This document shows, one piece after another, positions 7,832-38,608 of a stretch of 64,000 bases of DNA. Both the position numbers and the translations under genes were made by a program. The stretch is taken from positions 1-64,000 of IMG/VR virus record IMGVR_UViG_3300005937_000003; one strand, 5' to 3'. The stretch's first letter is position 1. Each line of letters begins with the position of its first letter. The notes under the pieces are model-generated. The model ran no database searches and had not been told where the DNA came from. It saw only the letters and a program-made list of their open reading frames with translations. The DNA comes from a virus (taxonomy: Duplodnaviria; Caudoviricetes).

Positions 7832-8562
7832 CAGCCTAGCTCGTCGGTGGTCGGCTCCACGTCAGACGTCGAGCCACCCGGGATGTCCAGTTCCATGCCA
7901 GGCTGGATCAGGTCGGGGTTCGAGCCGATCAGATCCTTGTTGGCGTCGTAGATCTCGCGCCAGCGCGACGAGTCGCCGTAGACCTGCTTGCTGATCTTGA
8001 TCAGGTAGTCGCCGCCCTGCACGATGTACTTCGACGGGGTGGGTGCGCTCTCGCCGCCGTCGTCGGGTGTTGGTCCCTGGCTCGACACCGCGCCGCTGGG
8101 CGTGCCCGCCGCGTCGCCGTCGATGCTCACGTTGATGCTCCTGGCCTCGACCAGTTCGAGCGTGTAGGCGATATCCCCGAAGCCGCCCGTGGGCTTGTAG
8201 CTCCAGTTCGAGATCCACACGTCCTTGTTGACGTTGCTGTCGCTGATGACCAGGCTGAGCGTGCGCTTCTGGCGCACCTGCAGGTCCACCCAGTTGTCGA
8301 TCTGGGCGACGATGTCGGTCGGCGCCCGCCAGTTGCTGACCAGCGGCGTGAGCACGGCGCGGGCGGCGCCGTAGAAGACCGCGTCCCACGAGTAGGTCGT
8401 GCTCGACCGCCCGTTCGGCAGGCGCACCTCGCCCAGGCCGTCGATGTTGACGGTGGTGAAGCTCGGCGCGCTGTTGACCGCGAACTCGGTCGGGTTGGAC
8501 GGCAGGACCAGCGCGTTCACACCGCCCGGGTCGTCTGGCCCGCGCAGCACGAACTGGATCAC
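7831..8562 (-). CDS. Tail tube initiator / XkdP-like LysM protein
   Basis: LPSNPTEF N-terminus; C-terminal LysM YIVQGGDYLIKISKQVYGDSSRWREIYDANKDLIGSNPDLIQPGMELDIP. Confidence 0.85.
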   Translation of the reverse strand: MIQFVLRGPDDPGGVNALVLPSNPTEFAVNSAPSFTTVNIDGLGEVRLPNGRSSTTYSWDAVFYGAARAVLTPLVSNWRAPTDIVAQIDNWVDLQVRQKRTLSLVISDSNVNKDVWISNWSYKPTGGFGDIAYTLELVEARSINVSIDGDAAGTPSGAVSSQGPTPDDGGESAPTPSKYIVQGGDYLIKISKQVYGDSSRWREIYDANKDLIGSNPDLIQPGMELDIPGGSTSDVEPTTDELG

Positions 8563-11330
8563 GTGGCCAGGCCCTCGGAAGCCATATTGCCGAAGGCCAC
8601 GCGTAGCTGGCTGCCCAACAGGCTAAACAGGCGGCTGGCCTGCTCCTCGACGGCTGCCGACACCTCGTCGCCCACGCCAGGCGCCGCGCCAGAGGCGTCG
8701 ATCTGGAAGACGGGCGCGAAGACCAGCCCGCCGCCGCCCATCGCCGCCATCTGGCCAGGCGTCAGCACGAACTCGTTGGCGCCCGTGGTGTTGGCGGCCA
8801 GCGTCATGCCAGGTGGCAAGACACCGCCTCGGTCGTACGGCTGGTAGGCGCCGCCCGCCGCCAGGCTGGACACGCCAGGCACGTTGGCGATGTCGCCGTA
8901 GCGGTCTTGGATGTAGCGGATACCCGCGATGATCTGGGCGATGGGGTCCATCGGGTCCATGCCAGCAGGCGTGTAGTGCGCTCGGTTGGTGCCCGTTAGC
9001 TGCATCAGGCCCACGCTGGCGTTGTTGTTCTGGGCGTTGATGTCGGTCGAGTTCATGGCCATCGGATTGCCGCCCGACTCGTGCTGGATGATCTGGCTGA
9101 GCGGCCCAGCCCACGAGGCGGGCACGCCCGTGGCCTGGATGGCCGCGTCGATCCAGCCGCCGACGTCGGTGCCGCCGAAGACGTTCGACAGGTTGGACAT
9201 GAAGGCCATGATGTCGGGCATGCGCGCCTGCAGGCCGTTGATCAGGCCCTGCATGATGTTGGTGCCGATACCCTCGAAGACCAGCGACGGGGAGTGGATG
9301 CCGAGTGCATCCTTGATGAACTGCGGGATCTTGTCGGTGATGTTGGTCCGAATCCAGCCCAGCAGGTCAGGCCCGCCCAGGCCCTTGATCAGCCCGTTGA
9401 CCATCTCGGCGCCGATCTCGACCAGGCGCAGCGGCAACGTCAGCAGCACCGTCAGGGTGTTGTTCTTGAGGTCTTCCCACAGCTTGACGATGGCGGGGAT
9501 GGCAGGCTCGATGACGTTGTGCCACAGCCAGTCGATCAGGCGGCCGAACTCGGTGATGATCGGCCCGACCACCTGCTTGATGGACTCCCAGGCGCCGTTG
9601 ACCATGTTCCTGAAGTCCTCGTTGGTGTTGTAGGCAAACACCAGGGCGGCCGCGAGGCCGATCAATAGGCCCGCGATGAGCACGAACGGGTTGAGCATCA
9701 TGACCGCGTTCAGCAGCGCCTGGGCGGCCGCAGCGGCGTACATCTGGGCCACCCACAGCGCCATCGGCGCGGCCTGCGCGAGCAGGATGGCGGTACGGAT
9801 GGCCAACACCGCGTTCTGGATGATGAACATGGCCGTCAGCGCCGAGATCACCCCGACCAGCGCGCTCTGCGCCCACTTGTTCTTCTCCAGCCACTCCCAC
9901 ATGGTGCGGAAGGTGTTGATGACGTCGGTGCCCGCCTTGATCAGCCCGGGGATGGCCACGGTGGCCGTGAAGATCATGGCGTCGCGCAGGGCGAAGAAGA
10001 AGAAAATGACGGGGCTATCCTCCTCCAGGCTGAAGATGCCCCCCTTGAAGTCGCCCGTGACCATCATCTGGATCAGGTTCCAGATGCTGCTGAGCGCGCT
10101 CACGACGTCGCTGGCGAACTGCTTGATCGACGGGATGGCGTCCATGAAGCTCTGCAGGAAGGGCTGGACCATGTCCGCCGTCTCCTGGCCGAAGGTGTCG
10201 CGGATCAGGTCGTAGATCACGCCGATGGCGCCCGAGTCGCTGGTGAAGGCGGTGAACAGCGCCTGGACGCCCGTGACCAGCGTGCCGAAGCCCTTGGCCA
10301 GGTTGGTGACGAAGGTCGCCATCGTGGCGCCCGCCGACTTGGCCCACGCCTCGAAGTCGGCCGATGACAGGAAGTCGAGCAAGCCCGCCACGGCGTCCTT
10401 GGCCGCCACGAACAGCGGCTGGAACATCTCGGCGGACGTGATGGCGATGGCGTCCGACAGCGAACTGGTCAGGCCCGACCACGTGCTGGCCTGCTTGGCC
10501 ATCGCGCCGCTGAAGCGGTTCAGGTCGCCGCTGAAGGCCTTCCAGATCTGGTCACCCTTGGCGCCCGCCTTCTCCAGTTGCTCGATCTTCTGGGCCGCCT
10601 GCGGGCTGAGCACGGCCAGTTCCTGCAGACGCATCCTGGCCTCACCGAACGGCTGGCCCGCCTGGATGGCCGCGTAGGCCCTGCCCATCCAGAAGCTGAT
10701 GTCCTTGATGTCGCCGCCCGTGGCCGCCGCCGCGTCACCGAACATGGTCAGGTACTGCTGGGTGTCCAGCGCGTCGCCGCCGAAGGTCCGCAGCAGGCGG
10801 CTGGCGTCGATGACGGGCTGCGTCTCGAAGGGCGTCTTCTTGGCGAACTCGAACAGGCTCTGGACGTGCGCCCGCGCCCTGTCGGCGTCGCCCATCAGCG
10901 TCTCGAACTGCAGCGTGGACGTCTCCAGCGTCGCGTTCATGCCGATGATGGCGCCCTTGACCATGCCGAAGCCCTGGCCCGCCACGTTGAGCAGTTGCTG
11001 GCCGATGCCCTGGCCGATGCCCATGACCATCTGCTCGCCCTGCATCTTGAGGCCGCTCATCATGTTGCGGAAGGGCGCCGAGAACTTGTCCGCCAGGGTG
11101 ACGGGCAGGCTGAGGGCCTTGTTGGCCAGCCCGCGAGCGGTGTTCATCAGCATCTGCAGCGGCCTGGTCAGCAGGTCGTTGAGCTTGAGCGTGACGCTGT
11201 ACGGGTTCTTGGAGACGCGGTTGAGGTCGGCCTCGGTCTTCTGGACGTTCTTCTGGACGGTGTTCAGCGCGGCCCGCGACTGGTCGCGCACCTCGACCTG
11301 AATGATCTCGTGGTAGAGGTTGGAGGCCAC
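8559..11330 (-). CDS. Tape measure protein with C-terminal lytic transglycosylase (SLT)
   Basis: 923 aa helical, Ala/Trp-periodic; FETLMG.A.RA..FAKKTPFE tape-measure motif; IIQHESGGNP..GLMQL..IIAGIRYIQDRYG SLT motifs. Confidence 0.92.
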   Translation of the reverse strand: MASNLYHEIIQVEVRDQSRAALNTVQKNVQKTEADLNRVSKNPYSVTLKLNDLLTRPLQMLMNTARGLANKALSLPVTLADKFSAPFRNMMSGLKMQGEQMVMGIGQGIGQQLLNVAGQGFGMVKGAIIGMNATLETSTLQFETLMGDADRARAHVQSLFEFAKKTPFETQPVIDASRLLRTFGGDALDTQQYLTMFGDAAAATGGDIKDISFWMGRAYAAIQAGQPFGEARMRLQELAVLSPQAAQKIEQLEKAGAKGDQIWKAFSGDLNRFSGAMAKQASTWSGLTSSLSDAIAITSAEMFQPLFVAAKDAVAGLLDFLSSADFEAWAKSAGATMATFVTNLAKGFGTLVTGVQALFTAFTSDSGAIGVIYDLIRDTFGQETADMVQPFLQSFMDAIPSIKQFASDVVSALSSIWNLIQMMVTGDFKGGIFSLEEDSPVIFFFFALRDAMIFTATVAIPGLIKAGTDVINTFRTMWEWLEKNKWAQSALVGVISALTAMFIIQNAVLAIRTAILLAQAAPMALWVAQMYAAAAAQALLNAVMMLNPFVLIAGLLIGLAAALVFAYNTNEDFRNMVNGAWESIKQVVGPIITEFGRLIDWLWHNVIEPAIPAIVKLWEDLKNNTLTVLLTLPLRLVEIGAEMVNGLIKGLGGPDLLGWIRTNITDKIPQFIKDALGIHSPSLVFEGIGTNIMQGLINGLQARMPDIMAFMSNLSNVFGGTDVGGWIDAAIQATGVPASWAGPLSQIIQHESGGNPMAMNSTDINAQNNNASVGLMQLTGTNRAHYTPAGMDPMDPIAQIIAGIRYIQDRYGDIANVPGVSSLAAGGAYQPYDRGGVLPPGMTLAANTTGANEFVLTPGQMAAMGGGGLVFAPVFQIDASGAAPGVGDEVSAAVEEQASRLFSLLGSQLRVAFGNMASEGLAT

Positions 11331-24335: not shown

Positions 24336-24650
24336 CTAGCGCGCCGTCTGCAGGCTGGCCAGCGCGGCGTCGAGCGCGGCCTTGACGGTCGGCGCGATCA
24401 GCATCTCGGGCGTGCTGCGCTGGGACATCTGATGCTGGCCGCCCTGCTCGGCCCAGTAGGTCCACATATCGTCGGCGTGGAAGCCGTTACGCGCCGCGTT
24501 GTCGAGTTGCGCCTGCAATGCGTCCTGCTCGGCCTTGAACGCGGGCAGGCTGGCCAGGTAGATGAAGCGCCCGTCGTAGACCCACACGACGCCTGGCAGG
24601 TAGCCCTGCTCGCTGGCGAAGCTCTCGCGCATGACCTTGTAAACGGGCAC
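24336..24650 (-). CDS. Hypothetical protein (candidate immunity/partner of the MuF effector)
   Basis: 104 aa, second small gene after the MuF gene; operator overlaps its start. Confidence 0.65.
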   Translation of the reverse strand: MPVYKVMRESFASEQGYLPGVVWVYDGRFIYLASLPAFKAEQDALQAQLDNAARNGFHADDMWTYWAEQGGQHQMSQRSTPEMLIAPTVKAALDAALASLQTAR

Positions 24651-24660
24651 GGTGACGGGA

Positions 24661-25059
24661 TTATGCCATGTCCTCAGTTCGACGGATGTACTGGACCAGT
24701 GGCCCGTAGACCACCCAGCCAGGCCCCTCGTAGAGCGGTCCGACGCCGCCTGCGCGGATGATCCCGACGTACTCGGCCATCTGGTCGATGTCGCGCTGGT
24801 CGTACAGGCCGAAGATCTCGACCACGCGGTCGTCGGGGTCGCGCACCAGCACCTCGCCGTCGTCGCCGTAGGCGATGTGGGCGATCTCGATGCCGTTGCC
24901 GCGCTCCTCGTTGCCCACGCTGTACCAGCCCATGACGTTGTCCACGAAGCGCACGCCCAGGATCGGCTGCGGGTCGGTGTCCAGCCCGTCTGGGAAGTGC
25001 ACCTGGGCGGTCGCCCCGCCGCGCACCAGTTCCTCGATCCGCTCGCGCTCGCCCGCCAT
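24661..25059 (-). CDS. Hypothetical acidic protein (candidate immunity protein)
   Basis: ATG overlaps the MuF-gene TGA; MAGERERIEELVRGG..., 132 aa. Confidence 0.7.
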   Translation of the reverse strand: MAGERERIEELVRGGATAQVHFPDGLDTDPQPILGVRFVDNVMGWYSVGNEERGNGIEIAHIAYGDDGEVLVRDPDDRVVEIFGLYDQRDIDQMAEYVGIIRAGGVGPLYEGPGWVVYGPLVQYIRRTEDMA

Positions 25060-28000
25060 CAGTGCATGATCACCACGATGTCCTCGACGCTCTTGCCTCG
25101 GATCTGCGAGATGCCGCGATCCTTCAGCTTCTTGATGATGCGCGTGCGCTCGGCGGCCGACCCCGCGTTGATCTGCTTGACGTATTCGAGCATCGGGAAG
25201 CCGTTCTTGACCACCAGTTCGTTCAGGTAGTTCGTCTCGGCCTGCTTCCACTGCTGGACGGTGGACAGGCGGTCGCGCTTGTTCGACGGGTCGGAGCGGC
25301 CGAAGTTGTCCGACTTGTACTGGATGTTGTCGGTGCGCAGCATCAGGTCGGTGTCGAAGATGAAGTGCGGCTTGCCCGCGTAGTCGGCGCGGAAGAAGTG
25401 GCTGGGGTTCTGGATGCGCAGGAACAGGTAGCTCGCGCCGCCCGTGCCCATGTCGGTCGCGGACGAGTCGCCATCGGCCTTGCGATACACCCCGTTGCGC
25501 ACGCGCTCCTCGGTGTTCATGAGTTGCCCGTTGGTGCCCAGGATGATGTCGAGGAAGCCCTCGGCGCCGTGCTTGCTGCGGTGACTCAGGCCCCAGCCTG
25601 GCATGGCCTTGTCGATGTCGGCCTTGGTCACGTCGAAGCGCGTGAAGAAGCCGTGGCCGCCCGCCTCGCTGGCGTGCAGGGCGCCCTCGGGGCGGTACAT
25701 CGGGTCAAACTGCGGCTCAGGCTTGTAGCTCGGCAGCTTGGTCACGTCGCTGATGTTCAGCTTGGTGTTCCAGTAGGCGTGGTGGACGGCGATCTGGTCG
25801 CGTACGGGCATGCCTGGCGCGATCTTGTTGGTGACCTGGCTGCGGTAGGTCGGGTCGTCCTCCAGCTTGCTCGCGTGCGCCTGGTGGTGCAGGTACAGCA
25901 GTTCGATGTCGTCCCGCGTGGCCACGCCATCGTCCAGGCCCAGTGCCTCGATCTTGTCGATGGCGGACTGCAGCATGGCGGGTGAGCCGTCGAAGTTCTC
26001 CACGAGGAACTCCAGGCGGCCCTGCTTCGAGTAGCGGTTGCCGCCCATGTTGTGGGGGATGTACTTGGCGGTGATGCCTGGCGCGATCTGGATGGTGTGC
26101 TCGCCCGCGCCCTCGTGGCCGTAGGTCGAGCCACGCGCCATCGTGCCGTCCCACACCAGGCGGTGCCCGACGGGCTTGACGTTCAGGCCGTACGGCTGCT
26201 CGGTCTTGGCCTGGAACTTGTTGGGCGGCGGCGGGGCGGGCGCGGCCGTCGCGCTCGGCGGCGGTGGCGGGATGTACTCCCCGAAGGTGGCCTGGTGGAC
26301 GGCGGTCGAGGTGGTCCAGTAGTGGGTGATCTGGGCGTTGATCTTGTCCAGCGGCTGGGTGGCAAGCTCGTGCACGCTCCAGCCCGAGATCGTTTCGAGG
26401 ATGGCCGTGTAGTGCGCGGCCTTGCCCGCGTCGAGGTTGCCCGCCTCGATCTGCTTGGCCAGGTTGACAATCGGCATCATCTTGGGTGTCTCGATGATCT
26501 GGTTGTAATACTGGGTGCCTGGCTTCATGTGCGCCGCGACGTGCTTGATGCCCGGGATGAGGGCGTTCCAGAGCGGGTCGGCGGGCGCGTAGCTGGCGGC
26601 GGTGGACGAGGCGGCGTAGTTGCTGATGCCCTCCAGCTTGGCCAGTAGCTTGGGTTCGGCGTGCGCTCGCACCTTGCCGCGCAGCAGCAGCGCCTGGCCG
26701 TCGCCCGTCTTGTCCACCGTGTAGGCCAGCATCGAGCCGTCCTCGATGTCGGTGCCCGCCACGCGGACGCTATGGCCAGCCCAGCCTGTACGGGCGACAG
26801 TGTCCACCAACGGCTGGGCGATGGGCGTGAACTGGTTGGCGGTGACGGTCGCCGCAGGCGGCGCGGGTGGCGGCTTGAGCGCCTGCGTCGCGCTCGGCAG
26901 GGGCTTGCCCGCCTTGGTGTCGGCGTCGTCGTACAGCTTCTTGACGTCGGCGCGGATGTTGTGTTTGCGCTCGATAAGCTGGTCGTAGATAACCTCGGGC
27001 GTGGCCACGAAGCCCACGCGGGCGGCGTGCTCGGCGTACGGCCTGACGGCCTCCTTGAAGACGGCGTCGTCCAACGCCTCGATCTTGTCCACCAGGGCGT
27101 CCACGGCCTTGCGGTCGAGGTCGAATCTGCCCTGGATGTAGCCCTCGAACAGCGGCCTGTAGACCACCCCGTCGGGATTCGGCTCGTATGTCCAGTGCAG
27201 CTTGTCCTTGCCCAGGAACTTGAACGCCTGGCCCTTGTCGATGGCCAGCACGTTGCCCTGCGGGTCGAGCAGCAGCGCGCCGTTGTTGGAGTCGTGCTGG
27301 CTGATCAGCCAGTCGATGATCATGTGCTCCTGAATCTGGGCACGCTGCTGGGGCGTCAGGCTCGCCAGGGTGTTCATCTTGACCGTGCCCGAGATCTGGT
27401 GGAACTGCTGCAGCGAGCCGTCCTGGCCGCCGACGCGGGTCACGTGCATCTCGGGCGTGGCGTAGCCGAGTAGCTCCATGACGTTGTAGCCCGCCTTCTC
27501 GGCATTGGCCGCGTTGGGGTCGGGCTTGAACATCCACGTGCTGCCGTCGGGCGCCTCGTAGATGGTCTTGGCGTGGCCGCCGCCCACGTTCTGCGGCTTG
27601 ACCTTGAACTGGCCGACGTTCGGCACGGGCGGCGGTGGCTTGAGGCCAGTCGGCATCTGCGGCTGCTGCTGCGTCGGGGCTGGCTGAGTGGTGACCACGG
27701 GCACGCTCGGCGCCGCTGCGGGTGTGACGCCTGGCGGCGTGACCAGGGTGACCTTGCCTGGCGACTTGGTGAACTTGTTGGGCACGCCTGGGATGGGGCT
27801 GACGGGCTTCAGCGCGACCACGTTCTTGCCCGCGTTGTAGGAGGTGACGGTGGCCGTCACGAGCGTGCCCTGGTAGTCGGTGGTGACCACCGCGCCCTTG
27901 TCGGTGACCTTCAGCGTAGGGGCCGTGGGCGGTGGTGGCGGCTGCGCGGCGGGCGGCGCCACAGGTGGTGGTGGGGTGTAGGGCGTGGGCGCCTTGAAGT

Positions 28001-31000
28001 CGCTGAGCACGTGCAGCGGCACGCTGAATTGCGCCCCGTCGGGTAGCTCGATCTTCCAGCTTGTGGCGCTCGTCGGCTCGATCAGCTTGATCGTTTCGAT
28101 GCCACTGTAGAGCGCCGTCCCGCCTGGCTCGGGACCAGCGCTGGGGGTCAGTGTGGCGTGGGCGGGCGGCGTCACGGCCATCGGCGCGCCAGGCGGCAGC
28201 AGTTCGCTCTTGTAGAAGTACAACTGGTTGCCCGCGTGCGACCCCGTCTTCATCTCGACGGTCATCTCGTCTTGCGCGCTCTTGCCGACAGGGTCGGTCA
28301 GCAGGACGGCCTCGTGGCCGTGCCACGACTTGCCTGGCATGTTGACCACCACCGTGTCGCCCACCTTGAGGTGGCTGATGCTGCCTGGCCGTGGCGCGGT
28401 TGGCCCTGGCACGTTGGTCTGCACGGGCGGGGTGGTGACGGTCGGCGCGGGCGCAGCACCTGGCGGCTGGATGGCGTCCACGTACTTGGGGTTCTTGGTG
28501 AAGGTGGCCTTCTTGGCGCCCGTGATCGGCACGTCGGGCTTGATGGTCACCACCTGCTTGCCCGGGTTCCACGAGGTGACGGTGCCCGTGACCAGATTGC
28601 CCTGGTACATCGTGCTGACCTTGGTGCCCTTCTGGGTGACGTCGATGACCGTCCCAGGCGGCGGTTGCAGCGGTACGGGCGGTGGCGTGGGCGCATGGAC
28701 CACGCTCGCGCCTGGTGCCTTGAGCGTGCTCAGCGGCCAGAAGTCGGTCGTGCCTGCGGCAGGCCCCGTCTGGTAGACCACCGTGAGCGGCGTGGTCGGT
28801 GAGGCGCCAGGCTTGGACTCTTTGATAATGACCGTCTGGCCGTGCATCGGGTCGCCAGGCACGTCGAGCACGGCCGTCGTGCCTTGAATCGGCGTCACCT
28901 GCTGCGGCGCGGGGCCTGGGGCGGTCGTCAACGCTAGCTCGGACAGCTTGAAGAAGCCCTCGTAGCCTGCCTCGGCGCCCGTCTTGAACATGACCTTGAC
29001 GGTGGTGTCAGGTCCAGCACCTGGCTTGTCCTGCTCGATGGTGACCGTCTCGCCATCGAGCGGGTGGCCTGGCTTGGCGATCTGCGCGACGGTGCCCTTG
29101 ACCGCTTGCGGCTGGCCTGGCGGCGCGGGCGCGGCCTTGGGCGGCGGCATGTAGCCCGCGTGCGTCGCGCCTGGCAGGCCGATCTCGTCCAGATAGGCGT
29201 GCACCTTGCTGCCATCGGCCAGCAGGATGTCCACGTAGGCGCTGCCCGTCTTGCCCAGGACGTCGGCCTGGAGCACGCCTGTAGCGCCCGCATCAGGCCC
29301 CTTGAGGATGACCACCTCCTCGCCTGCGGTGAGTTGGTGCAGCGGCGTCTGGGTGTGCTGCACGGTGCCTGGCGGCACGTCGAGATACTTCTTGGCGACG
29401 AAGTAGGCGTCGTTATCGTTCTGGGCGTCGGCCAGCGTCTTGTAGACGGGGATCTGGCTGTCGGGGTCGAGCGTCCAGGCGGGCGTCTCGCCCAGGTACA
29501 CATCCTGGCCGTACAGCGGGAAGCTCGTGTCGGTGATCTGCACCTTGTCGCCAGGCGCCAGGTCGTCCAGCTTGGCGAGGCCACGTGTGCCTGCGCTGGC
29601 GGCGACCTGGGCGTTGGGGTCGATGAACAGGTTCTTGGCCAGCGCGTCATGCCCGCCGCTCGGCAACAGGATCGGCACAGGCTCATTCGGCCCGTAGTTG
29701 TTCGGGTCGTCGGCCAGGACGTACTTCTCGCCGTGCAGGATGCTGCCTGGCTTGTAGACCTGCACCTCGTCGCCAAACTTCAGGTGGTCGATGCCGCCCG
29801 GGGTGGGCACAGGTGGCCCGACGGGCTGCGGCGCGGCAGCCAGCGGCTTGATCTGGCCGACGTTGACCTCGGCCGTCGAGTAGTAGTGCAGGCTGCCGTC
29901 CGCGAGTTGGATCTGGTAGATGCCCATTGCCGAGATCTGGACCACCTTGCCCTGCTGGCCGTGCACGCTCGGGTACAGCGGCGTGTCGATCTGGACGTTG
30001 TCACCGATCTTGATCGGGGTGGTCGCGGGCGGCGGCACGTAGCTCGGCGTGGGCGGTGGTGCGGGCGGCGCAAGCGTGGGATTGGTGGCCGAGACGTCCC
30101 ACTTCTGGTAGCTCGGCGCGAACGCGTGCGAGCCGTCCATCAACTGCACCGTCCAGTCGTCAATGATCTTGGCGACGGGCGCCCCGTGGTGCGGGTTGCC
30201 TGGCTTGTCGATGAACCCGATTGGCTGCGGCGTGGTCGGCGCAGGCGCAGGCGCGACCTGAGCGGGCGCCTTGAAGTTGGTCAGTTCGCTGGGTGGGAAG
30301 TCGAGCGTCATGCCGCTCGGGAACTTGACCTCGATCAGGCCGTTGGGCTTGACGGCCACGATCTCCAGGGTGTCGATGCCTGGCGTCTTGAGCACCAGTT
30401 CGGCCGTGCCACCGACCTGCGGCCCGACCACGGGCACGCTCGTGGCGGTGGGCGTGATCACCTCCAGCTTGAACTGGCTGGTGGCGGGCAGGTCGAGCGC
30501 CAGCGCCTGGCCCTGAATGTTGACGCCGATGGTGGCCGTGCCGTCGGGCGCGATCTTGGTGATGGTGCCCACCTGGCCATCGAGCACGGGCTGCTCGGGC
30601 GTGTGGAACTTGACGTTGATGCCCGCCACGAGCGTCCCGGGCGGGTGCGACGGCGGCGTGGCTTCGAGGTTCTGGGGCACGACGTTGTTCTCGCTGCCGT
30701 CTTCCCACTTGACGTGCACCGTGCTCGCGGTGGCGATGCCCATGACCGTGCCGACCTTGCCCTTGTGCTGGCCGACCTTGGCCCAGATGACCTGCCCGAC
30801 GCCGATGCCGCCCAGGCTGGGCAGGGGCGCCGACTGTAGCTGGACGGCCTCGATGAACTCCTTCCACTGGCTGCCATCGGGGAACAGCACCTCGACGGCC
30901 AGGGCGCCCTGCATGGTGGTGTGCCCCGTCACGGTGCCTTCCAGGCCCTTCTCGGGGCCATCGGTGACGGTGACCTTGTCGCCCACCTTGTAGACGGGCG

Positions 31001-32924
31001 GCGCCACAGCGTTGGCGCTCAGGTGCTCCATCGCGATCAGCAGGTCGTCGGCCATGTTGCGCAGGTGCAGGCCCTTGGCGTGCTTCCAGGCGCCTGGCTT
31101 CATGATCTGCACGACCGACTCGGCCAGCATCTCGTGCCAGTCGTCGGCGGCGTAGACGCTCGGCAGGCCCAGCCCGATGCCGTCGTTCAGGTCGTTGAAG
31201 ACCTGCTCCCACTGGTTGGCCTGGCCGTGCGTCATCAGCCGCTCCAGGGTGTGCGCAAGCTCGTGCACGATCAGCCACTTCTCGGTGACCGTGCCCGTCT
31301 GGGGATCGGCGGCCACGTACATCGGCTGCCCGCCCGCGCCCGTCTGGCTGGCGTTCTGCTCGATGAACTTGAGCACCTGGGCGCGCTCGGCCAGGTTGAT
31401 GCGGAAGTAGCTGCCGATGGCCTGGGCGTACACCTGCTGGTTGGTCGAGAGGCCTGGCGCGAACTCCAGGCGGACCTCCTGGCCGAACTTGTAGTGGTGC
31501 CCCGTCTTGGGGTCCACGAAGGGCGTGCCGATGGCGATGCCGACCTGCTCGTAGGCGTCGAGCGCCTCGCTCACGGCCTGCAGCGCGTCGGCGGTGCCCT
31601 GGTCGTGCGGCACCTGGGGATCGACGTCCACGTTCACGCCGCGCTGCGCCAGGGCGTGCAGGTGCAGGTCGATCTGCTCCTGGGGCGTCGGGCCGATCTG
31701 GGTCAGCGGCGCCGCCACGGTGGGCGCGCCCGTGTAGGGCTGGATCTTGGACGGCGCCCGCCAGACCTTGATCGAAGCCATGCCCTGGCCAGGGTCGATG
31801 ATCAGCGTCAGGACACCCTTGCTGGCGTGCTCGCCGTTGACGGTGGCGATGACCTGCTGACCCTTGACGTCGATCAGCACCTTCTGGCCCTTGGCGTAGC
31901 CGCCCATCAGCGGGCCTGTGCCGAAGGCCTGGATGGCGCCCTCGACGCTGGAGATCTCGATGTCGAGCAGCGGCTTCAGGTCGTTCTGGTAGTAGGCCTC
32001 CAGATGCGGCTGCGAGTGCGGGTCGGCCAGCCAGCTATCAAGCTCGGCCAGCACGTCGTCCAGCTTCTTGTGGACGGGGATGGCCGTGCAGAAGCAGTGC
32101 GGGTGCGGCTTGAGCGGTTCGGTGCCCTTGGGGAAGAAGCCGATGGCGGCGTAGTCGTCGCAGATGTCCTTCTCGTGGCCCAGGCCCTCCGCGATGTGCC
32201 AGCGGATGCCCAGGTAGCTCGGCGTGGCCGCGTGCGACGAGATGGTGCCCTCGTGGAAGGCGTTCTGCATCTCGGTCCTGGCCACGCGCATGGCGGGCAT
32301 GCTGGTGTCCTTGGGCACGCGCAGGCGCTTGGCCGTGGCCTCCTTGTAGGGCACGTTGGTGCCTGGCTGCAGGTACTGCTCGATCTGGCGAGCGACCTGC
32401 ACGGGCGGCTGGCCCGCGATGATGGCCGTCTGGACCACGCTCTGGGTCGCCTGGCGCCACTGCTGGTTGGACTTCCAGATGCGGTCGCTGAGCTTGATGC
32501 CGTCCTTGCCCGTGCGCGTGATGAAGGCGCCCGCCGCACGCTGGTTGATGCCCCTGACGTGGGCGTCGATGGCCTCGGGGCCGAAGACCGACCCGTAGGC
32601 GTCGGACACCTTGGCCTTGAGCACGCTGTCGGCCGAGTCATGGAAGCTGGCGTAGATGCCCGCGTGCATCGCGTCGATCACGCGCTGGTCGAGCGTGGTC
32701 GCGTAGTCACCGATGATGGTCTGCAGGTTGGACAGGTTCCAGGCGGTGCTGGGCGCCGTGGGCGGCGCGGCCGCGACCCGCGACCCCACGCTCGTGGCGG
32801 CCTGCTGGTAGGCGTTCTTGACCTGCGCCTGGGTCAGCCCCGACTTCTGCGCCCACGCCTCGCGGGCGTCCACCAGCGACTGGCGGTAGATCTGACTGTT
32901 ACTCGGCTGGGGGTTGCTCGGCAT
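25059..32924 (-). CDS. MuF (SPP1 gp7-like) minor head protein fused to zincin, KOW/SH3-like array, PI3K/HipA-like kinase and ART-like domains
   Basis: N-terminal LSDRIW, RVARTE, ICDD, HPHCFC MuF motifs; VHELAH..HEMLAES zincin; WMFKP..AEK..DWLISQHD..AIDKGQAF kinase-like; HRS..EER.RNG..S..DM.TGGASYLFLR..NELVV ART-like tip. Confidence 0.88.
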   Translation of the reverse strand: MPSNPQPSNSQIYRQSLVDAREAWAQKSGLTQAQVKNAYQQAATSVGSRVAAAPPTAPSTAWNLSNLQTIIGDYATTLDQRVIDAMHAGIYASFHDSADSVLKAKVSDAYGSVFGPEAIDAHVRGINQRAAGAFITRTGKDGIKLSDRIWKSNQQWRQATQSVVQTAIIAGQPPVQVARQIEQYLQPGTNVPYKEATAKRLRVPKDTSMPAMRVARTEMQNAFHEGTISSHAATPSYLGIRWHIAEGLGHEKDICDDYAAIGFFPKGTEPLKPHPHCFCTAIPVHKKLDDVLAELDSWLADPHSQPHLEAYYQNDLKPLLDIEISSVEGAIQAFGTGPLMGGYAKGQKVLIDVKGQQVIATVNGEHASKGVLTLIIDPGQGMASIKVWRAPSKIQPYTGAPTVAAPLTQIGPTPQEQIDLHLHALAQRGVNVDVDPQVPHDQGTADALQAVSEALDAYEQVGIAIGTPFVDPKTGHHYKFGQEVRLEFAPGLSTNQQVYAQAIGSYFRINLAERAQVLKFIEQNASQTGAGGQPMYVAADPQTGTVTEKWLIVHELAHTLERLMTHGQANQWEQVFNDLNDGIGLGLPSVYAADDWHEMLAESVVQIMKPGAWKHAKGLHLRNMADDLLIAMEHLSANAVAPPVYKVGDKVTVTDGPEKGLEGTVTGHTTMQGALAVEVLFPDGSQWKEFIEAVQLQSAPLPSLGGIGVGQVIWAKVGQHKGKVGTVMGIATASTVHVKWEDGSENNVVPQNLEATPPSHPPGTLVAGINVKFHTPEQPVLDGQVGTITKIAPDGTATIGVNIQGQALALDLPATSQFKLEVITPTATSVPVVGPQVGGTAELVLKTPGIDTLEIVAVKPNGLIEVKFPSGMTLDFPPSELTNFKAPAQVAPAPAPTTPQPIGFIDKPGNPHHGAPVAKIIDDWTVQLMDGSHAFAPSYQKWDVSATNPTLAPPAPPPTPSYVPPPATTPIKIGDNVQIDTPLYPSVHGQQGKVVQISAMGIYQIQLADGSLHYYSTAEVNVGQIKPLAAAPQPVGPPVPTPGGIDHLKFGDEVQVYKPGSILHGEKYVLADDPNNYGPNEPVPILLPSGGHDALAKNLFIDPNAQVAASAGTRGLAKLDDLAPGDKVQITDTSFPLYGQDVYLGETPAWTLDPDSQIPVYKTLADAQNDNDAYFVAKKYLDVPPGTVQHTQTPLHQLTAGEEVVILKGPDAGATGVLQADVLGKTGSAYVDILLADGSKVHAYLDEIGLPGATHAGYMPPPKAAPAPPGQPQAVKGTVAQIAKPGHPLDGETVTIEQDKPGAGPDTTVKVMFKTGAEAGYEGFFKLSELALTTAPGPAPQQVTPIQGTTAVLDVPGDPMHGQTVIIKESKPGASPTTPLTVVYQTGPAAGTTDFWPLSTLKAPGASVVHAPTPPPVPLQPPPGTVIDVTQKGTKVSTMYQGNLVTGTVTSWNPGKQVVTIKPDVPITGAKKATFTKNPKYVDAIQPPGAAPAPTVTTPPVQTNVPGPTAPRPGSISHLKVGDTVVVNMPGKSWHGHEAVLLTDPVGKSAQDEMTVEMKTGSHAGNQLYFYKSELLPPGAPMAVTPPAHATLTPSAGPEPGGTALYSGIETIKLIEPTSATSWKIELPDGAQFSVPLHVLSDFKAPTPYTPPPPVAPPAAQPPPPPTAPTLKVTDKGAVVTTDYQGTLVTATVTSYNAGKNVVALKPVSPIPGVPNKFTKSPGKVTLVTPPGVTPAAAPSVPVVTTQPAPTQQQPQMPTGLKPPPPVPNVGQFKVKPQNVGGGHAKTIYEAPDGSTWMFKPDPNAANAEKAGYNVMELLGYATPEMHVTRVGGQDGSLQQFHQISGTVKMNTLASLTPQQRAQIQEHMIIDWLISQHDSNNGALLLDPQGNVLAIDKGQAFKFLGKDKLHWTYEPNPDGVVYRPLFEGYIQGRFDLDRKAVDALVDKIEALDDAVFKEAVRPYAEHAARVGFVATPEVIYDQLIERKHNIRADVKKLYDDADTKAGKPLPSATQALKPPPAPPAATVTANQFTPIAQPLVDTVARTGWAGHSVRVAGTDIEDGSMLAYTVDKTGDGQALLLRGKVRAHAEPKLLAKLEGISNYAASSTAASYAPADPLWNALIPGIKHVAAHMKPGTQYYNQIIETPKMMPIVNLAKQIEAGNLDAGKAAHYTAILETISGWSVHELATQPLDKINAQITHYWTTSTAVHQATFGEYIPPPPPSATAAPAPPPPNKFQAKTEQPYGLNVKPVGHRLVWDGTMARGSTYGHEGAGEHTIQIAPGITAKYIPHNMGGNRYSKQGRLEFLVENFDGSPAMLQSAIDKIEALGLDDGVATRDDIELLYLHHQAHASKLEDDPTYRSQVTNKIAPGMPVRDQIAVHHAYWNTKLNISDVTKLPSYKPEPQFDPMYRPEGALHASEAGGHGFFTRFDVTKADIDKAMPGWGLSHRSKHGAEGFLDIILGTNGQLMNTEERVRNGVYRKADGDSSATDMGTGGASYLFLRIQNPSHFFRADYAGKPHFIFDTDLMLRTDNIQYKSDNFGRSDPSNKRDRLSTVQQWKQAETNYLNELVVKNGFPMLEYVKQINAGSAAERTRIIKKLKDRGISQIRGKSVEDIVVIMH

Positions 32925-33621
32925 CGGGTGGATGCGTGCCCGACGTGAAGGTCTGGCTGTTGGGCAAGCCCGTCCAGTGCGCCACGGCGGTGCCTGCGGC
33001 CGTCGCGGGCACCAGCGCCTGGCGCTCGCGCTCGGCCTGAGCGCGCTGCTCGGCCTCGAACTGCTGACGCTCCTGGGCGGTCAGGTTGCTCTTGGCCGTG
33101 CGCACGTCGGCGGGCGCGCTGGTCCACGGCGGCATCGGTAGCTGGCTGGCGATGACGTTGGCCAGGTGGTCGGCGGTGATCTCGATCTGGCGCCTGAAGG
33201 CGCGGATGAACAGCGTGTGCGCCTGGTCGGCCAGGGCGCCCTTCAGGTCGTGCTCGACCATCTGCAGGTTGGCATCCAGCAGCACGTGCGATAGCTCGTG
33301 CGCCATGTGCAGGCGGGCGTCCTGGGGATCGGAGTCGAAGATCTCGTTGTCGAAGCGGAAGCTGGCGAAGACCCGCCCGTCGATGATGTTGACCTGGGCG
33401 TGGGCGTCCGTGTCTGGCCCTTCGTGCCACAGCCGCAGCGTCCAATGCTGCAACAGCATCTGGTCGGCGCACGTGCGCAGCCAGGCGCCCAGCCACTCGC
33501 GCTGCTGGCCCGTGTAGTAGCTCTCGGCATCGTTCAGCGGCCCCGTCGTGGCGCGGTTGTCGAGGTACTCGGTGGGCTTGGCCTGGCCAGGCCGCATCTC
33601 GTCGTAACACGTGATCGGCAC
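32899..33621 (-). CDS. HExxH zincin-like metalloprotein
   Basis: LHMAHELSHVLL with downstream E (QIEITADHLA); -10-like TACACT 6 nt upstream of GTG. Confidence 0.65.
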   Translation of the reverse strand: MPITCYDEMRPGQAKPTEYLDNRATTGPLNDAESYYTGQQREWLGAWLRTCADQMLLQHWTLRLWHEGPDTDAHAQVNIIDGRVFASFRFDNEIFDSDPQDARLHMAHELSHVLLDANLQMVEHDLKGALADQAHTLFIRAFRRQIEITADHLANVIASQLPMPPWTSAPADVRTAKSNLTAQERQQFEAEQRAQAERERQALVPATAAGTAVAHWTGLPNSQTFTSGTHPPDAEQPPAE

Positions 33622-34088: not shown

Positions 34089-34283
34089 CTACTTCTTGGG
34101 CTTGTGGCAGGCGCACTGGCAGCGGAAGTTGCGCCCCACGCGGCGGTCCTCCCAGCCTGTGCATTCGGCGTGTAGGTCGCGCAGACGGCGGTGGCGGGCC
34201 ACGCCAGGCTCGGAGTCAACGATCTCGACCACCTGGCCACGCTCGCACAGAATGCTGATGCGCAGCTTGCTGTAGCGGGCCAT
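34089..34283 (-). CDS. Small Cys/His-rich hypothetical protein
   Basis: MARYSKLRISILC..HAEC..CQCACH; ATG overlaps the NUDIX stop. Confidence 0.55.
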   Translation of the reverse strand: MARYSKLRISILCERGQVVEIVDSEPGVARHRRLRDLHAECTGWEDRRVGRNFRCQCACHKPKK

Positions 34284-34816
34284 CAGTAGCTCTGCGCCTT
34301 GATCCAGCGGTTGACGCGGTTGGCCACCGCGTGGGTGACGGCGTTGCAACCGTGCGGCAGGCGGTCGGCGTCCCACCAGGCCAGTGGGTACTTCTCGTCG
34401 CCGTTGGTCACGGGGATCTCGCCCGCCCAGTCGGTGATCAGGAAGGGGTGGAAGGTGCGCCCGTTGGCGTCTTGGAAGCTGCCCAGGTCGTGCACCTCGG
34501 CCGCGAACAGCCCCAGTTCCTCGTACAGTTCGCGCAGCGCGGCGTGCTTGCCGTCCTCGCCCTTGTCCACGCGGCCTGAGCCGAAGCACCACTGGTTGAT
34601 GGGCGGCCACGGTGGCAGGCGGAACTCCATCAGCACGCGGCCCGTCTCGGGATCGAGCAACACGTAGATGGCGACCTCGGTCTTATTCTCGTAGTGGTCG
34701 GCGGCCGCCGACATGCCCTTGTACTTCAGGACACCGTCGTCGGGCTTGCTCGCGCCGTTGGCGATCTCGGACAGGCCAGGCAGACTGGCGAAGTCGGAGG
34801 CGGTTGGCTGGGTCAT
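34283..34816 (-). CDS. NUDIX hydrolase
   Basis: Nudix box GRVDKGEDGKHAALRELYEELGL. Confidence 0.9.
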   Translation of the reverse strand: MTQPTASDFASLPGLSEIANGASKPDDGVLKYKGMSAAADHYENKTEVAIYVLLDPETGRVLMEFRLPPWPPINQWCFGSGRVDKGEDGKHAALRELYEELGLFAAEVHDLGSFQDANGRTFHPFLITDWAGEIPVTNGDEKYPLAWWDADRLPHGCNAVTHAVANRVNRWIKAQSY

Positions 34817-34983
34817 GACTGGACATCCTTGATGGCGAAGCCCTCGGGCCAGCGCTGGTGGCCAGGGCAGTTGGTGGCGGTGCAATTCCAGGCGGCGCAC
34901 TTGATGCACACGGTGCTGGCAGTCGAGGCCTGCTCGCGAAGCGGCAGGTGGCCGCACAGGTGGCGGACCTCGGTGGTGTTCAT
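34813..34983 (-). CDS. Small Cys-rich protein
   Basis: CGH..CIKC..C..C; first gene after the promoter at 34992-35020. Confidence 0.55.
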   Translation of the reverse strand: MNTTEVRHLCGHLPLREQASTASTVCIKCAAWNCTATNCPGHQRWPEGFAIKDVQS

Positions 34984-35632: not shown

Positions 35633-37183
35633 TCACGCCGCGAACGGCGGGACACCCGATTGTTCCTCCTCGCCCTCCTCGGTCGTCACGTCCTGGCCGC
35701 CCAGCGGTAGCCCGCCGCCCTGCACGCGCTCCAGCCAGGCCAGGCTACTCAGCACGCGACGGCGCTCGTCCTCGGTGCCCTCGCTGAGCCAGGGCAGGAT
35801 GGTCGGCACGAAGTCGCGCAGGAACTCGTTGGCGCCGTCCAGGCTCACCAGGCCCGCCTGGGTGCCCACCTGAAACGCCTGGAACAGCGTCAGGATGGTC
35901 TGCGCCACCGCCTGCTCGTCCTTGGCCGCGATCTCGGGCCACGACGGCTCGACCTCGTAGGTCAGCAGCGCGGGCATGTCGAAGCCAGGCGCCTTGGCAG
36001 CCATCGCCAGGAACATCTCGTGCGTCTCGACGTACGGGTCGGTGGTCATCAGCCGCTTACGCTCGATGGTCTTGACGAACGGTCCCATCTGGCTGTCCAC
36101 GCTCGCCTTGCTGGAGGCGACGGCCGTGCCCAGCACGAACTCGGGGATCTGCGCGCTCTGGACGATGCAGTAGAACAGGTACTCCAGCAGGATGCCCACG
36201 CCCGCCGTGCCAGGCTCGGCGGTGATGTAGTTGGCGTCCTCACCCTCGGTCAGCAGGAAGATCTCGTGCCCCTGGAAGTTGACGGGCTGACCTGGCTTCC
36301 AGCCCGCGAAGTTGTCGGCCAGGAAGCGGTTGACGTCCTTGAGGGTGAACTTCACTTTCGGCTTGGCGAACAGGCGGATGCCCTGATTGCCGACCATCAT
36401 GGTGTCGTGGTACGCCCGCAGCAGCGGCTCCAGCGGTTCGAGGTCGCTCACACCGAATAGCTGGTTCTCCTCGGGTTCGTTCTTGAAGTGCACGACGGGG
36501 ATGAAGCCCCAAGGGTTCGGCACCTCGTCGCCTGGATAGCGCTGGCGGATGTCGGCGGGGGCGCGCTCGTCGGCCTTGAGTTGGTACGTCGCGTCGGTCA
36601 GCGTCTCGGTGATCACGTAGCTCGGCTGGGTGTTCGAGTCGGGCCTGTTGGTCGGGTACACGGGGTGGGTGATGATGAGCGCGTCCCACTCGCCCGTGAT
36701 GGGGTCGAGGACGGGCGTGCACCACTCGGGATGCTCCAGGCGGATGTCGAAGCGCTTCTGCTTGCTGAAGCGGTCGTCCACGTAGTCCAGGCGCAGGAAG
36801 ACGTCGCCGTCGCGCAGCGTATTGCGGTTGACGGTCAGGAAGGTCGAGACGAACTTCTGGTCGAACTCGTTCAGCGCCTCGTCGGCCTCGGGCACCTCGG
36901 CCTTGCTCTTGAAGTGCGGCACGCCCACGTAGCCCGCCGTGAAGTTGATGATCGGCCTGGCGAAGTGCGCGCCCAGCTTGTACTGCGGGATCTGGTTGCG
37001 GTACAGCTTGCGCGCCCGCCCGTAGTCCACCCGTGAGGTGTCGAAGTTGGACTCGCGGTTGGGCCACCAGCCCGTGCCCGTGATCGAGGCGCCGTCCTGG
37101 CGCAGCGGGGCGTACGGATCGGTTTCCCCGTAGGCGATGCGATTCATCGCTCTGGCCAGCGCTCGTGTCAACGGGTTGGGCAT
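35633..37183 (-). CDS. Portal protein
   Basis: 516 aa after TerL; WGFIPVVHF.N...G.SDLE, IVQSAQIPEFVLG portal motifs. Confidence 0.9.
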   Translation of the reverse strand: MPNPLTRALARAMNRIAYGETDPYAPLRQDGASITGTGWWPNRESNFDTSRVDYGRARKLYRNQIPQYKLGAHFARPIINFTAGYVGVPHFKSKAEVPEADEALNEFDQKFVSTFLTVNRNTLRDGDVFLRLDYVDDRFSKQKRFDIRLEHPEWCTPVLDPITGEWDALIITHPVYPTNRPDSNTQPSYVITETLTDATYQLKADERAPADIRQRYPGDEVPNPWGFIPVVHFKNEPEENQLFGVSDLEPLEPLLRAYHDTMMVGNQGIRLFAKPKVKFTLKDVNRFLADNFAGWKPGQPVNFQGHEIFLLTEGEDANYITAEPGTAGVGILLEYLFYCIVQSAQIPEFVLGTAVASSKASVDSQMGPFVKTIERKRLMTTDPYVETHEMFLAMAAKAPGFDMPALLTYEVEPSWPEIAAKDEQAVAQTILTLFQAFQVGTQAGLVSLDGANEFLRDFVPTILPWLSEGTEDERRRVLSSLAWLERVQGGGLPLGGQDVTTEEGEEEQSGVPPFAA

Positions 37184-37204
37184 GGGCGGCTCCTCGGCGC
37201 CAGT

Positions 37205-38608
37205 CTACGCGAAGCTGCCCGATACGACCGCCTCGATGGCCTCACGGCTGCCTGGCGATACCATTGCCCGCAGCGGCCACGATGCCAGCGCGAGTGCAGT
37301 CACGGTGTCGTCGTGTCCGCCATCTGGGTGGTCCACGCGGCTCGACTGGCCATGCTTGACGCGGCGCAGGGCGCGCAATTCGTCGCGCAGCCTGGTGAAG
37401 CCCGCAGGTAGCTCGAACTTGCGGTTCTGCAGCAGCACCTGCAGGTTGGAGAGCAGCGCGTTGCGCGACGTCTGCGAGAAGACGTACGGCTCGGCGCCGA
37501 CGATCTGCTCGGCCACGCCCTTCTCGGTCGTCGCGTCGATCAACACGCGGGCGTTGTTGAACTCGGCGCGCAGGGTGTTGACGTCGTCCACCACGCTGCC
37601 CTCGCCCGTGTAGGGCTTGCCCCTGTAGTACAGCCAGCGGGCGATGCGCACGGGCCAGTAGGTGACGTTGAGCACGACGATGGCGGTGTAGTCCTGCACC
37701 TGAGCCAGGTCCACGCCGATGACGTAACGGTGGCCGTTGCCCGCCTCTAGCTCGGGCGGGTAGTCCTCATCGAACAGGTCGGCCAGCAGCGACCAGGCGA
37801 AGACCTGCTCGTCGTCGTCCACGAACTGGGCCAGGTATTCCACCAGCCAGACGTACTCGGGCACCTCCAGCTTGATGCGCTCGATCTCCTCACGCGGCAC
37901 GGCCAGGTTGTCGAAGACCGTCGCGTGGATCGTGCGGTAGTAGCCCGACGGCTCGCTGTAGATGCGCCCGCTGCCGTCCACCAGCACGCGGTTGTCGCCG
38001 TTGGCCAGGTTGTGCAGCGTCTGGAAGTAGTTCTGGCCGTTGGGTGTCGATTCGAGCTTGATGGCCCCGCCTCGGTCCAGCACCATCGCTCGGATGACCT
38101 CGTTGTAGACCTTGTCCTTGATGAAGGCGGCCTCGGTGACGCACACGCCGTTGGCGCCCTTGCCGCGCAGGTACACCCCGTCGCGAGCCGTTGACCTGGC
38201 GTGTAGCTCAGAACCCGTCACCAGCTTCACGCTCGGGAAGGGGCTGCGCTTGATCGGCCCGTCGAGCAGCGCCTCCATCATGCCGTTAGGGTGCTGGGCG
38301 GCCTGCTCGATCTCGTTGAAGTACAGGCTCGCCTGGTCGAGGCTCGGGCCTGTGACGTACCACGTGTGGTTGGCGTGGGTGGCCAGCGAGTGGACGGCGT
38401 CCACCGTCGTCGTCAGGGTCTTGCCCGACCGCCGTCCCGCCACCTTGGTCGAGATGGTGCCGCCGATGTTGACCGCGTCCACCTGCCACGGCGACGTCCG
38501 CAGATCCTTGCCGAAGAAGACCTTGGCGAACTCGCACTTGTCGTGGCGGCAGCGCTGGACCACCTGGGCCAGGCGGGCCATCTGCTCGTGGCGCAGCAGC
38601 ACGGCCAT
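37205..38608 (-). CDS. terL: Terminase large subunit
   Basis: Walker A GRRSGKT, LRG, Walker B VTEAAF, STPNG, nuclease IGVDLAQVQDYT and HDDTVTALALA. Confidence 0.95.
   Translation of the reverse strand: MAVLLRHEQMARLAQVVQRCRHDKCEFAKVFFGKDLRTSPWQVDAVNIGGTISTKVAGRRSGKTLTTTVDAVHSLATHANHTWYVTGPSLDQASLYFNEIEQAAQHPNGMMEALLDGPIKRSPFPSVKLVTGSELHARSTARDGVYLRGKGANGVCVTEAAFIKDKVYNEVIRAMVLDRGGAIKLESTPNGQNYFQTLHNLANGDNRVLVDGSGRIYSEPSGYYRTIHATVFDNLAVPREEIERIKLEVPEYVWLVEYLAQFVDDDEQVFAWSLLADLFDEDYPPELEAGNGHRYVIGVDLAQVQDYTAIVVLNVTYWPVRIARWLYYRGKPYTGEGSVVDDVNTLRAEFNNARVLIDATTEKGVAEQIVGAEPYVFSQTSRNALLSNLQVLLQNRKFELPAGFTRLRDELRALRRVKHGQSSRVDHPDGGHDDTVTALALASWPLRAMVSPGSREAIEAVVSGSFA

Follow-up and report, generated by a model that had tools for sequence, protein, structure and literature searches.

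A MuF-anchored phage protein combines predicted zincin, kinase and DarT-like ADP-ribosyltransferase domains with a coupled candidate partner gene

MuF polymorphic toxins are encoded with their MuF domain beside the portal gene, a toxin at the C-terminus and a small immunity ORF downstream (PMC5576092). Each carries a single toxin domain of known Pfam type, almost only in temperate phages, and the listed toxin types include ADP-ribosyltransferases (ARTs) and metallopeptidases, as in the Enterococcus EFV toxin, a fusion of MuF and ART (PMC5576092). Polyvalent proteins are very long virion-associated polypeptides with several effector domains, predicted to be co-injected with DNA (PMC5512222), and packaged ARTs that target proteins are an established precedent (PMC5512222, PMC9503650). 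Few MuF toxins or polyvalent proteins have been tested, and the catalogue of their domains comes mostly from cultured phages. Here we describe P0001, a protein that extends this concept; what is new is its kinase-middle-ART tail, as yet unnamed, and the partner gene that accompanies it. P0001 shares with MuF polymorphic toxins an N-terminal MuF domain near the portal gene and a C-terminal toxin-like enzyme with a small ORF directly downstream, but it differs from them in having three enzyme-like domains and a 15-module KOW array, in an ART and partner that lie outside Pfam and PHROG, and in coming from a record with no detectable integrase. With polyvalent proteins it shares an ART, a peptidase and a kinase on one long polypeptide, its predicted zincin, kinase and ART folds being encoded by a single ORF among virion genes. 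The kinase of polyvalent proteins, however, is of a truncated Ser/Thr/Tyr-kinase type without a C-lobe, found in Verrucomicrobia and Bacteroidetes phages, whereas that of P0001 is predicted to be HipA/PI3K-like with a C-lobe. The text describing polyvalent proteins contains none of the terms KOW, SH3 and ATLF (PMC5512222).

The window analysed, a 64,000-nt stretch, belongs to an 81-kb uncultured phage record that is complete according to CheckV. The P0001 gene (25059..32924, minus strand) is an ATG-started ORF of 2621 aa by ORF list and translation, with codon-position GC of 0.65/0.45/0.93 (the last value being GC3) matching that of adjacent genes and a start backed by its relatives, whose alignments begin at residue 1–5. 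The ORF proposed by an earlier, sequence-only reading is thus sound, and that reading's five domain calls (MuF, zincin, KOW/SH3 repeats, kinase and ART) are supported, whereas its T4 Alt analogy lacks specific support and the domain string is not unique. Upstream on the same strand (35633..38608) lie genes for the large terminase (37205–38608; phrog_2, E 1.8e-29) and the portal (35633–37183; phrog_64, E 3e-31), giving the order TerL, portal, Nudix gene, 240-aa ORF, P0001, so that P0001 follows terminase and portal within the head module, as MuF-family proteins do. At its N-terminus, aa 14–314 (31983..32885, minus strand) match phrog_1657 at E 1.3e-52 along with 10 more head-morphogenesis or minor-head PHROGs, and tblastn with P0001 recovers phage MuF and head morphogenesis genes, in agreement with the N-terminal MuF call. 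Pfam Phage_Mu_F (PF04233) matches 14 of 42 homologues and gives no match on the P0001 sequence itself. Packaging in the head fits the terminase-portal-MuF context, and the protein is probably packaged there and ejected with the DNA. Elsewhere, sequence comparison returned little: the gene matched none of 50,697 phage records by megablast; PDB sequences, searched by phmmer and by profile with the whole protein, the cassette parts and the zincin, yielded nothing meaningful; the isolated domains drew only noise from Pfam and NCBIfam at E<=10; and PADLOC and PHROGs did not match the kinase, ART, zincin or partner ORF.

The MuF domain is followed by an ATLF-like (M34-like) zincin domain at aa 415–645 (30990..31682, minus strand). 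The HELAH motif noticed near 31250 lies at aa 554–558 (nt 31251–31265), with an EMLAE Glu helix about 40 residues downstream, and the predicted fold matches the catalytic domains of lethal factor and PPEP. Homologue searches at similar and greater lengths returned none; the sole homologues, in the relatives P0005 and P0012, lie in proteins above the lengths covered, and the zincin model consequently rests on three sequences, in all three of which HExxH and the downstream Glu (HELAH, then E-M-x-A-E about 40 residues later) are invariant. Pfam PF07737 does not match the zincin at E<=10 and is carried only by its atlas feature neighbours. Beyond the zincin, aa 643–1730 (27735..30998, minus strand) form an array of about 15 small KOW/SH3/Tudor-like beta modules of 50–75 aa each, joined by Pro-rich linkers, that makes up 40% of P0001 and is clade-specific. 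The modules fall into at least 4–5 sequence subfamilies, with pair scores of 50–144, whereas shuffled controls average 24 and reach at most 44, and their predicted fold is a five-stranded small barrel. Such fold evidence bears out the long KOW/SH3 repeat region read from the sequence, with Pfam scores on P0001 below cut-off (KOW, PF00467, 18.7 bits against 22.3; SH3_15, 20.3 against 24).

For the kinase, fold comparison and homologue profiles agree with the PI3K/HipA-like call, placing a candidate PI3K/PI4K/HipA-like domain with its motifs at aa 1770–2010 (26895..27617, minus strand). HipA_C (PF07804) matches 16 of 42 homologues (best E 1.6e-7) and PI3_PI4_kinase (PF00454) one of 42, and P0001's own kinase scores 15.7 bits against a Pfam cut-off of 30.5. 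No other part of the protein is as well conserved (79% identity with the closest relative), and K1800, D1878 and D1896 are invariant across sequences of 30–50% identity. The domain has in common with HipA and PI3K/PI4K kinases the predicted C-lobe fold, the Lys, the catalytic Asp and a DFG-like Asp; unlike HipA, it sits inside a virion protein and has no HipB-like partner. The catalytic loop of the P0001 clade reads D-S-N-N-G-A, in contrast to the D-x-H-x-x-N/Q of most relatives, so P0001 lacks the DxHxxN loop of the kinase family. Because the loop departs from DxHxx(N/Q), kinase activity is predicted with less certainty than the sequence-only reading assumed.

Kinase and ART are separated by about 400 conserved residues, the middle and pre-ART region (aa 2032–2429; 25638..26831, minus strand), which was absent from the earlier domain list. 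The C-terminal tip, already suspected to be ART-like, is aa 2430–2621 (25062..25637, minus strand), and its predicted fold is closest to that of DarT, with an H-Y-E centre present; its catalytic residues H2448, R2476, Y2499 and E2569 are invariant across sequences of 30–50% identity. There is no Pfam match of any kind at E<=10 and therefore none to the DarT family, which we take to be PF14487 (DUF4433); the ART likewise has no PADLOC or PDB-sequence match, also when searched with profiles of its family. Compared with DarT1 and DarT2 of DarTG (PDB 8baq, 7omv, 7yk3; PMC11543638), the P0001 ART shows no sequence-level kinship, is joined to a virion protein of 2400 aa, behind the conserved 400-aa region, and has a partner that is neither a macrodomain nor a NADAR. 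The phage genome does carry a NADAR gene (51772–52353), and published work shows that orphan NADARs of phages counteract the host's DarTG1 (PMC11825919); a role for NADAR as dedicated eraser of the ART was rejected as a general feature, with NADAR in 0 of 10 related virus records. Both cassette enzymes, kinase and ART, resemble toxins of toxin-antitoxin systems.

The sequence-only reading had compared the ART to T4 Alt, a view on which it would modify RNA polymerase or other host proteins and its likeness to DarT would extend only to the ART core. Packaged ARTs acting on proteins have precedent (PMC5512222, PMC9503650), atlas features set the domain close to OspC-family ARTs, and SopF, CteC, OspC3 and CopC are also among the fold matches. 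On the other side, the Alt/VIP2-type profile PF03496 does not match P0001, whose centre is H-Y-E instead of R-S-E, and the analogy to RNA polymerase is without specific support because the likeness is to DarT, an ART of DNA bases with an H-Y-E centre. We regard a protein-modifying ART as possible, if somewhat unlikely; judged by fold, nucleic acid is somewhat more likely to be the target than protein.

Directly downstream of the ART, an ORF of 132 aa and pI 4.3 (24661..25059, minus strand) begins with an ATG that shares one base with the P0001 stop codon (TGATG). The position is conserved: in the closest relatives, too, the ORF comes immediately behind the ART. In two independent data sets a partner-family ORF follows the ART, at 55 of 60 loci in viruses and, among bacterial genome contigs (where loci were located with a degenerate DNA pattern), at 60 of 66, as against none of five kinase-MuF loci without an ART. 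The 132-aa protein matches nothing in Pfam or PHROG. We consider it a candidate immunity-like partner of the ART, with a putative inhibitory role. In three runs of complex prediction, the ART module and this partner scored 0.00, 0.72 and 0.00, values that carry no weight for or against their binding. Remote homology between the two families of partner ORFs was considered and rejected (hhalign probability 2%), layout and position being all that they share. The sequence-only reading had missed the coupled ORF. A second small ORF of 104 aa (24336..24650, minus strand), with no family match, has counterparts of 37–67% identity (tblastn) in the closest relatives L003, L005 and L006, again at that position.

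The domain string, which the sequence-only reading did not recognise, is not unique to this phage. P0001 has 11 near-full-length relatives of 1878–2603 aa, one of which, P0005, has the same full architecture, and in P0012 PF03496 replaces the ART module at the C-terminus. The kinase-middle-ART tail is found far more widely, in 1497 protein clusters when the threshold is E<=1e-3 and in 163 when it is E<=1e-30 (the first cassette query and model began at aa 1860, inside the kinase, with the N-lobe outside). It is kept as a unit, nearly always as the C-terminal end of a long MuF protein, in phages and prophages of many phyla and on over 200 IMG/VR contigs; the relatives are proviruses or lie within bacterial chromosomes of many phyla. 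The tail has neither a Pfam nor a PHROG model and almost no relatives in cultured phages: tblastn of the ART module against 50,697 phage records gave a single weak match, in Pseudanabaena phage Pan1. The locus thereby reveals a large family, of about 1500 protein clusters, that Pfam, PHROGs and PADLOC do not detect. Comparable proteins are the 'minor capsid and ADP-ribosyltransferase fusion proteins' of mycobacteriophages (McProf gp54, Onyinye gp16), in which MuF, a kinase-like domain and an ART are encoded after terminase and portal. Their kinase-like domain is homologous to that of P0001 (27–31% identity, E 1e-19 to 1e-24) and goes unnamed in the records, which are annotated as ART fusions only; their C-terminal part does not match the P0001 ART module.

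On balance, we infer that P0001 is probably a MuF-anchored polyvalent effector, packaged and then injected with the DNA, whose enzymes would be active on host targets and whose ART would be held silent by inhibition from its partner. The MuF domain would hold the protein inside the capsid, next to the portal, and the remaining modules (the ATLF-like zinc protease, the roughly 15 KOW-like barrels in their flexible array and the C-terminal kinase-middle-ART cassette) would leave the head along with the DNA. After injection, kinase and ART would modify host macromolecules, leading to arrest or reprogramming of the cell. In the producer cell, whose replicating phage DNA the ART could otherwise reach, the small acidic partner made from the overlapping ORF would silence the ART.

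P0001 might instead be a classical MuF polymorphic toxin, carried by virions released from lysogens to intoxicate non-immune neighbours, with the downstream ORF giving lysogens immunity. Its architecture of MuF, C-terminal toxin and small downstream ORF matches that of MuF toxins (PMC5576092), its relatives in proviruses and bacterial chromosomes span many phyla, and the swap of the C-terminus for PF03496 in P0012 also fits. We nevertheless think this unlikely: no tyrosine or serine recombinase, integrase or resolvase was found in the complete 81-kb record, the partner's translation is coupled to that of a late structural gene, which does not point to expression in lysogens, and the cassette, instead of being highly polymorphic, is strongly kept as one unit. 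That P0001 is mainly structural, an internal head or ejection-channel protein with the KOW array as spacer or ruler and with enzyme-like domains that are inactive relics, would suit the off-consensus kinase loop of its clade and an array that is clade-specific and fills 40% of the protein, but is highly improbable given intact and invariant ART catalytic residues, kinase Lys and Asp and zincin HExxH...E, and a kinase that is the best-conserved part, sharing 79% identity with the closest relative.

For the injected effector with a silenced ART, a broader proposal, speculative and rather unlikely, is that uncultured phages and prophages of at least 10 bacterial phyla package a fixed pair of HipA-like kinase and DarT-like ART that would mark host nucleic acid at injection, with a co-translated antitoxin-like restraint in the producer. 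If true, phages would have repurposed enzymes of bacterial toxin-antitoxin defence as an injected weapon. As a smaller addition to this proposal, the few members with a PPEP/lethal-factor-like zincin may use it to cleave their own proline-rich linkers and so free the enzymes. An ART acting like DarT would amount to a DNA ADP-ribosyltransferase delivered by phage, mirroring the DarTG anti-phage defence, and such action would explain the need for an inhibitor gene joined to the late operon. Because the module is carried by cultured strains, among them Desulfosarcina alkanivorans PL12, Geminisphaera colitermitum TAV2 and Ectothiorhodospira shaposhnikovii DSM 243, DarT-like action is directly testable.

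The giant gene (25059–32924, minus strand) is a single open frame of 2621 codons with an ATG start. Its GC content by codon position (0.65/0.45/0.93, in a sequence of 68% GC overall) is the signature of real genes in the window and is missing from overlapping frames, and the start is right, since close relatives of its product, P0001, align from residues 1–5. The minus strand holds nearly all credible genes of the window, whose source IMG/VR record is 81,130 bp long and 100% complete by CheckV. Upstream on this strand lie genes for the large terminase (37205–38608) and portal (35633–37183), a Nudix hydrolase gene inside the head module between portal and giant gene (34283–34957), and a 240-aa ORF (32899–33621) that overlaps the giant gene start by 26 nt; downstream are capsid-region genes and the tape measure (8559–11330). 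This order places the giant gene at the position of a MuF/gp7-type head protein. The 240-aa ORF matched no PHROG and gave a weak Peptidase_M78/IrrE-like hit (E 0.004, under cut-off). Nudix genes that are head-fused or lie in late clusters have been described as possibly packaged (PMC9503650).

The sequence-only reading had placed a MuF domain, a HELAH zincin and a long KOW/SH3 repeat region in P0001, and all three were borne out. Residues 14–314 match phrog_1657 (head morphogenesis, E 1.3e-52) and ten other MuF or minor-head PHROGs; Pfam Phage_Mu_F is silent on P0001 itself, yet matches 14 of 42 homologues. We accept residues ~415–645 as an ATLF-like zincin at the level of fold: HELAH (554–558) and an E-M-x-A-E helix ~40 residues further on are invariant in P0005 and P0012, the sole zincin homologues found, and language-model neighbours independently carry the ATLF, M90 and Mx1 peptidase families. 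The Pfam search gave this segment no family membership, and the model of residues 400–830 reaches a pLDDT of only 62 because its alignment had three rows. The zincin is an insertion, missing from 9 of the 11 close relatives. Residues 643–1730 form ~15 KOW-like modules of 50–75 residues divided by Pro-rich linkers; several subfamilies can be told apart among them, pair scores reaching 144 where shuffled sequences peak at 44, and in tandem the modules align to Spt5 by Foldseek (E 1.5e-7). All Pfam KOW and SH3 matches stayed below cut-offs.

The PI3K/HipA-like kinase that had also been proposed is supported as a domain assignment, with activity less sure than the fold. The domain (residues 1770–2010), flanked by two Pro-rich linkers, carries a Gly-rich stretch, FKP (K1800), HD (D1878) and IDKGQ (D1896); the first structure model began at residue 1860 and covers the C-lobe only. 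Sixteen of 42 homologues are hit by Pfam HipA_C (best E 1.6e-7) and one by PI3_PI4_kinase; P0001 itself scores 15.7 bits, below cut-off. Most relatives, with at least 70 other family members among them, have an HD-x-H-x-x-N/Q loop, which we take to be the DxHxxN loop of the kinase superfamily. P0001 and its closest kin instead follow HD-S/T-N-x-G-A, reading HD-S-N-N-G-A (residues 1877–1884; 27296–27313) in P0001 and its four closest IMG/VR relatives. This deviant loop makes kinase activity less certain than the kinase fold, and is a clade-specific rewiring or loss of metal-binding residues.

The C-terminal tip had been called ART-like, and the model supports that call with a DarT-like fold. 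Only DarT chains exceeded a Foldseek probability of 0.9, with weak E-values for the 762-residue query; SopF was the next ART family in fold comparison (5.3–5.5), and OspC3 and CopC scored 3.7–3.8. The model puts H2448 at the end of strand beta1, with Y2499 and E2569 at the starts of beta3 and beta5. These three residues, with R2476, S2487 and D2491, are invariant across 62 distinct sequences of ~30–50% identity, a set whose selecting search pattern included Y2499 and left the other five outside. The centre is H-Y-E, of the DarT/PARP type. The parallel drawn with T4 Alt has no specific support, as Alt has an R-S-E centre and PF03496 had no match on this domain. No sequence method used tied the domain to DarT, and its atlas features lean to OspC-type ARTs, so we claim a predicted DarT-like fold and not DarT membership.

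How widely is this arrangement found? A word-index search returned eleven relatives (1878–2603 aa), all metagenomic and without names. One, P0005, has the full architecture of P0001, so the domain string, flagged as unfamiliar, is not unique. P0012 keeps MuF, zincin, KOW array and kinase and has its middle-ART tail swapped for a PF03496 (VIP2/Alt-type) ART; P0013 and P0014 each have the kinase-like domain twice in tandem. These three proteins show domain shuffling within the family. An exhaustive HMMER search with residues 1860–2621 gave 1497 cluster representatives at E<=1e-3 (163 at E<=1e-30), nearly all matched C-terminally in proteins of 1000–3200 aa. Of 164 collected proteins, at least 131 run kinase, middle, pre-ART, ART in that order, and the KOW array is limited to the twelve closest. 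The ART module occurs on 210 IMG/VR contigs and the kinase on 289. When one genome from each prokaryotic species was scanned for the motif, 94 stretches came up, 81 of them true ART modules, in Desulfobacterota, Acidobacteriota, Verrucomicrobiota, Nitrospirota, Hydrogenedentota, Pseudomonadota, Chloroflexota, Planctomycetota and others; cultured strains are among the carriers, and several cassette relatives are proviruses or lie within bacterial chromosomes. Cultured phages are the exception: a search of 50,697 phage records gave one weak match for the ART module (Pseudanabaena phage Pan1) and twelve for the kinase-like domain, all in mycobacteriophage proteins annotated as MuF-ART fusion or ART, or without a name. 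Five loci (L104, L106, L114, L118 and L151) encode MuF proteins with the kinase-like domain and different C-terminal regions of 355–995 aa; in L118 and L151, very long ORFs (789–902 aa) follow the MuF-kinase gene.

Directly after the ART lies a 132-aa acidic ORF (24661–25059, minus strand; pI 4.3) whose ATG shares a base with the giant gene stop codon, followed by a 104-aa ORF. In 73 of 79 ART-bearing IMG/VR loci, the start of an ORF lies no more than a few bases from the ART-gene stop, usually with a 4-base overlap; the ORF encodes 119–198 aa (281 aa in two loci). These ORFs form a large family (65) and a small one (5) that includes the 132-aa partner, with no homology detectable between them (hhalign probability 2%) and no Pfam or PHROG match for any member. 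In a second locus set, chosen by kinase, a partner of either family sits just after the ART in 55 of 60 ART-bearing loci; bacterial genomes show a partner there in 60 of 66. No member occurred anywhere in five kinase-MuF loci lacking the ART. The ART-partner linkage is clear.

NADARs reverse guanine ADP-ribosylation, and the phage has a NADAR-domain gene (51772–52353, minus strand; Pfam E 9e-14, above cut-off). None of ten related virus records with the same ART module has a NADAR, which makes an independent counter to host DarTG1, as described for phage NADAR (PMC11825919), probably a better explanation than a role in the MuF-ART system.

A MuF-anchored payload is the best-supported picture. 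MuF would fix P0001 at the portal, the KOW array, strung like beads with its proline linkers, could pass the tail channel as a thin, flexible chain, and the C-terminal cassette would do its work once inside a new host cell. Each of the two cassette enzymes has toxin-antitoxin toxins as its look-alikes. In the HipA type, the kinase phosphorylates aminoacyl-tRNA synthetases. For DarT enzymes, the substrates are bases in single-stranded DNA, which they ADP-ribosylate (PMC11543638). The ART target could be DNA, RNA or protein; we give nucleic acid a slight edge over protein, with neither reaching even odds. A DarT-like activity would give even a phage with no detectable integrase a reason to keep a putative co-translated inhibitor, because replicating phage DNA in the producer is just what DarT-type enzymes attack; a search of the complete 81-kb record turned up neither a tyrosine nor a serine recombinase.

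P0001 belongs to a known kind, the MuF polymorphic toxins (PMC5576092) and polyvalent virion proteins (PMC5512222), and reviews of viral NAD+ systems describe MuF proteins fused to ARTs of the Alt/VIP2 and N4 types (PMC9503650). No DarT-MuF link was found in the literature searched; the sole relevant source naming both (PMC9503650) leaves them unlinked in the parts covered. What is new is the specific, widely conserved kinase-unknown-ART cassette, the predicted DarT-like fold of its ART, the unnamed partner family to which it is tightly linked, and the clade-specific KOW array with the ATLF-like insert. Elsewhere on the minus strand, a 262-aa ORF (62208–62996) had no match in Pfam or PADLOC, and the early region carries genes for a 2OG-Fe(II) oxygenase (52395–52973; Pfam E 1.2e-8) and a Rad52/22-type recombinase (54155–54904; E 6e-5).
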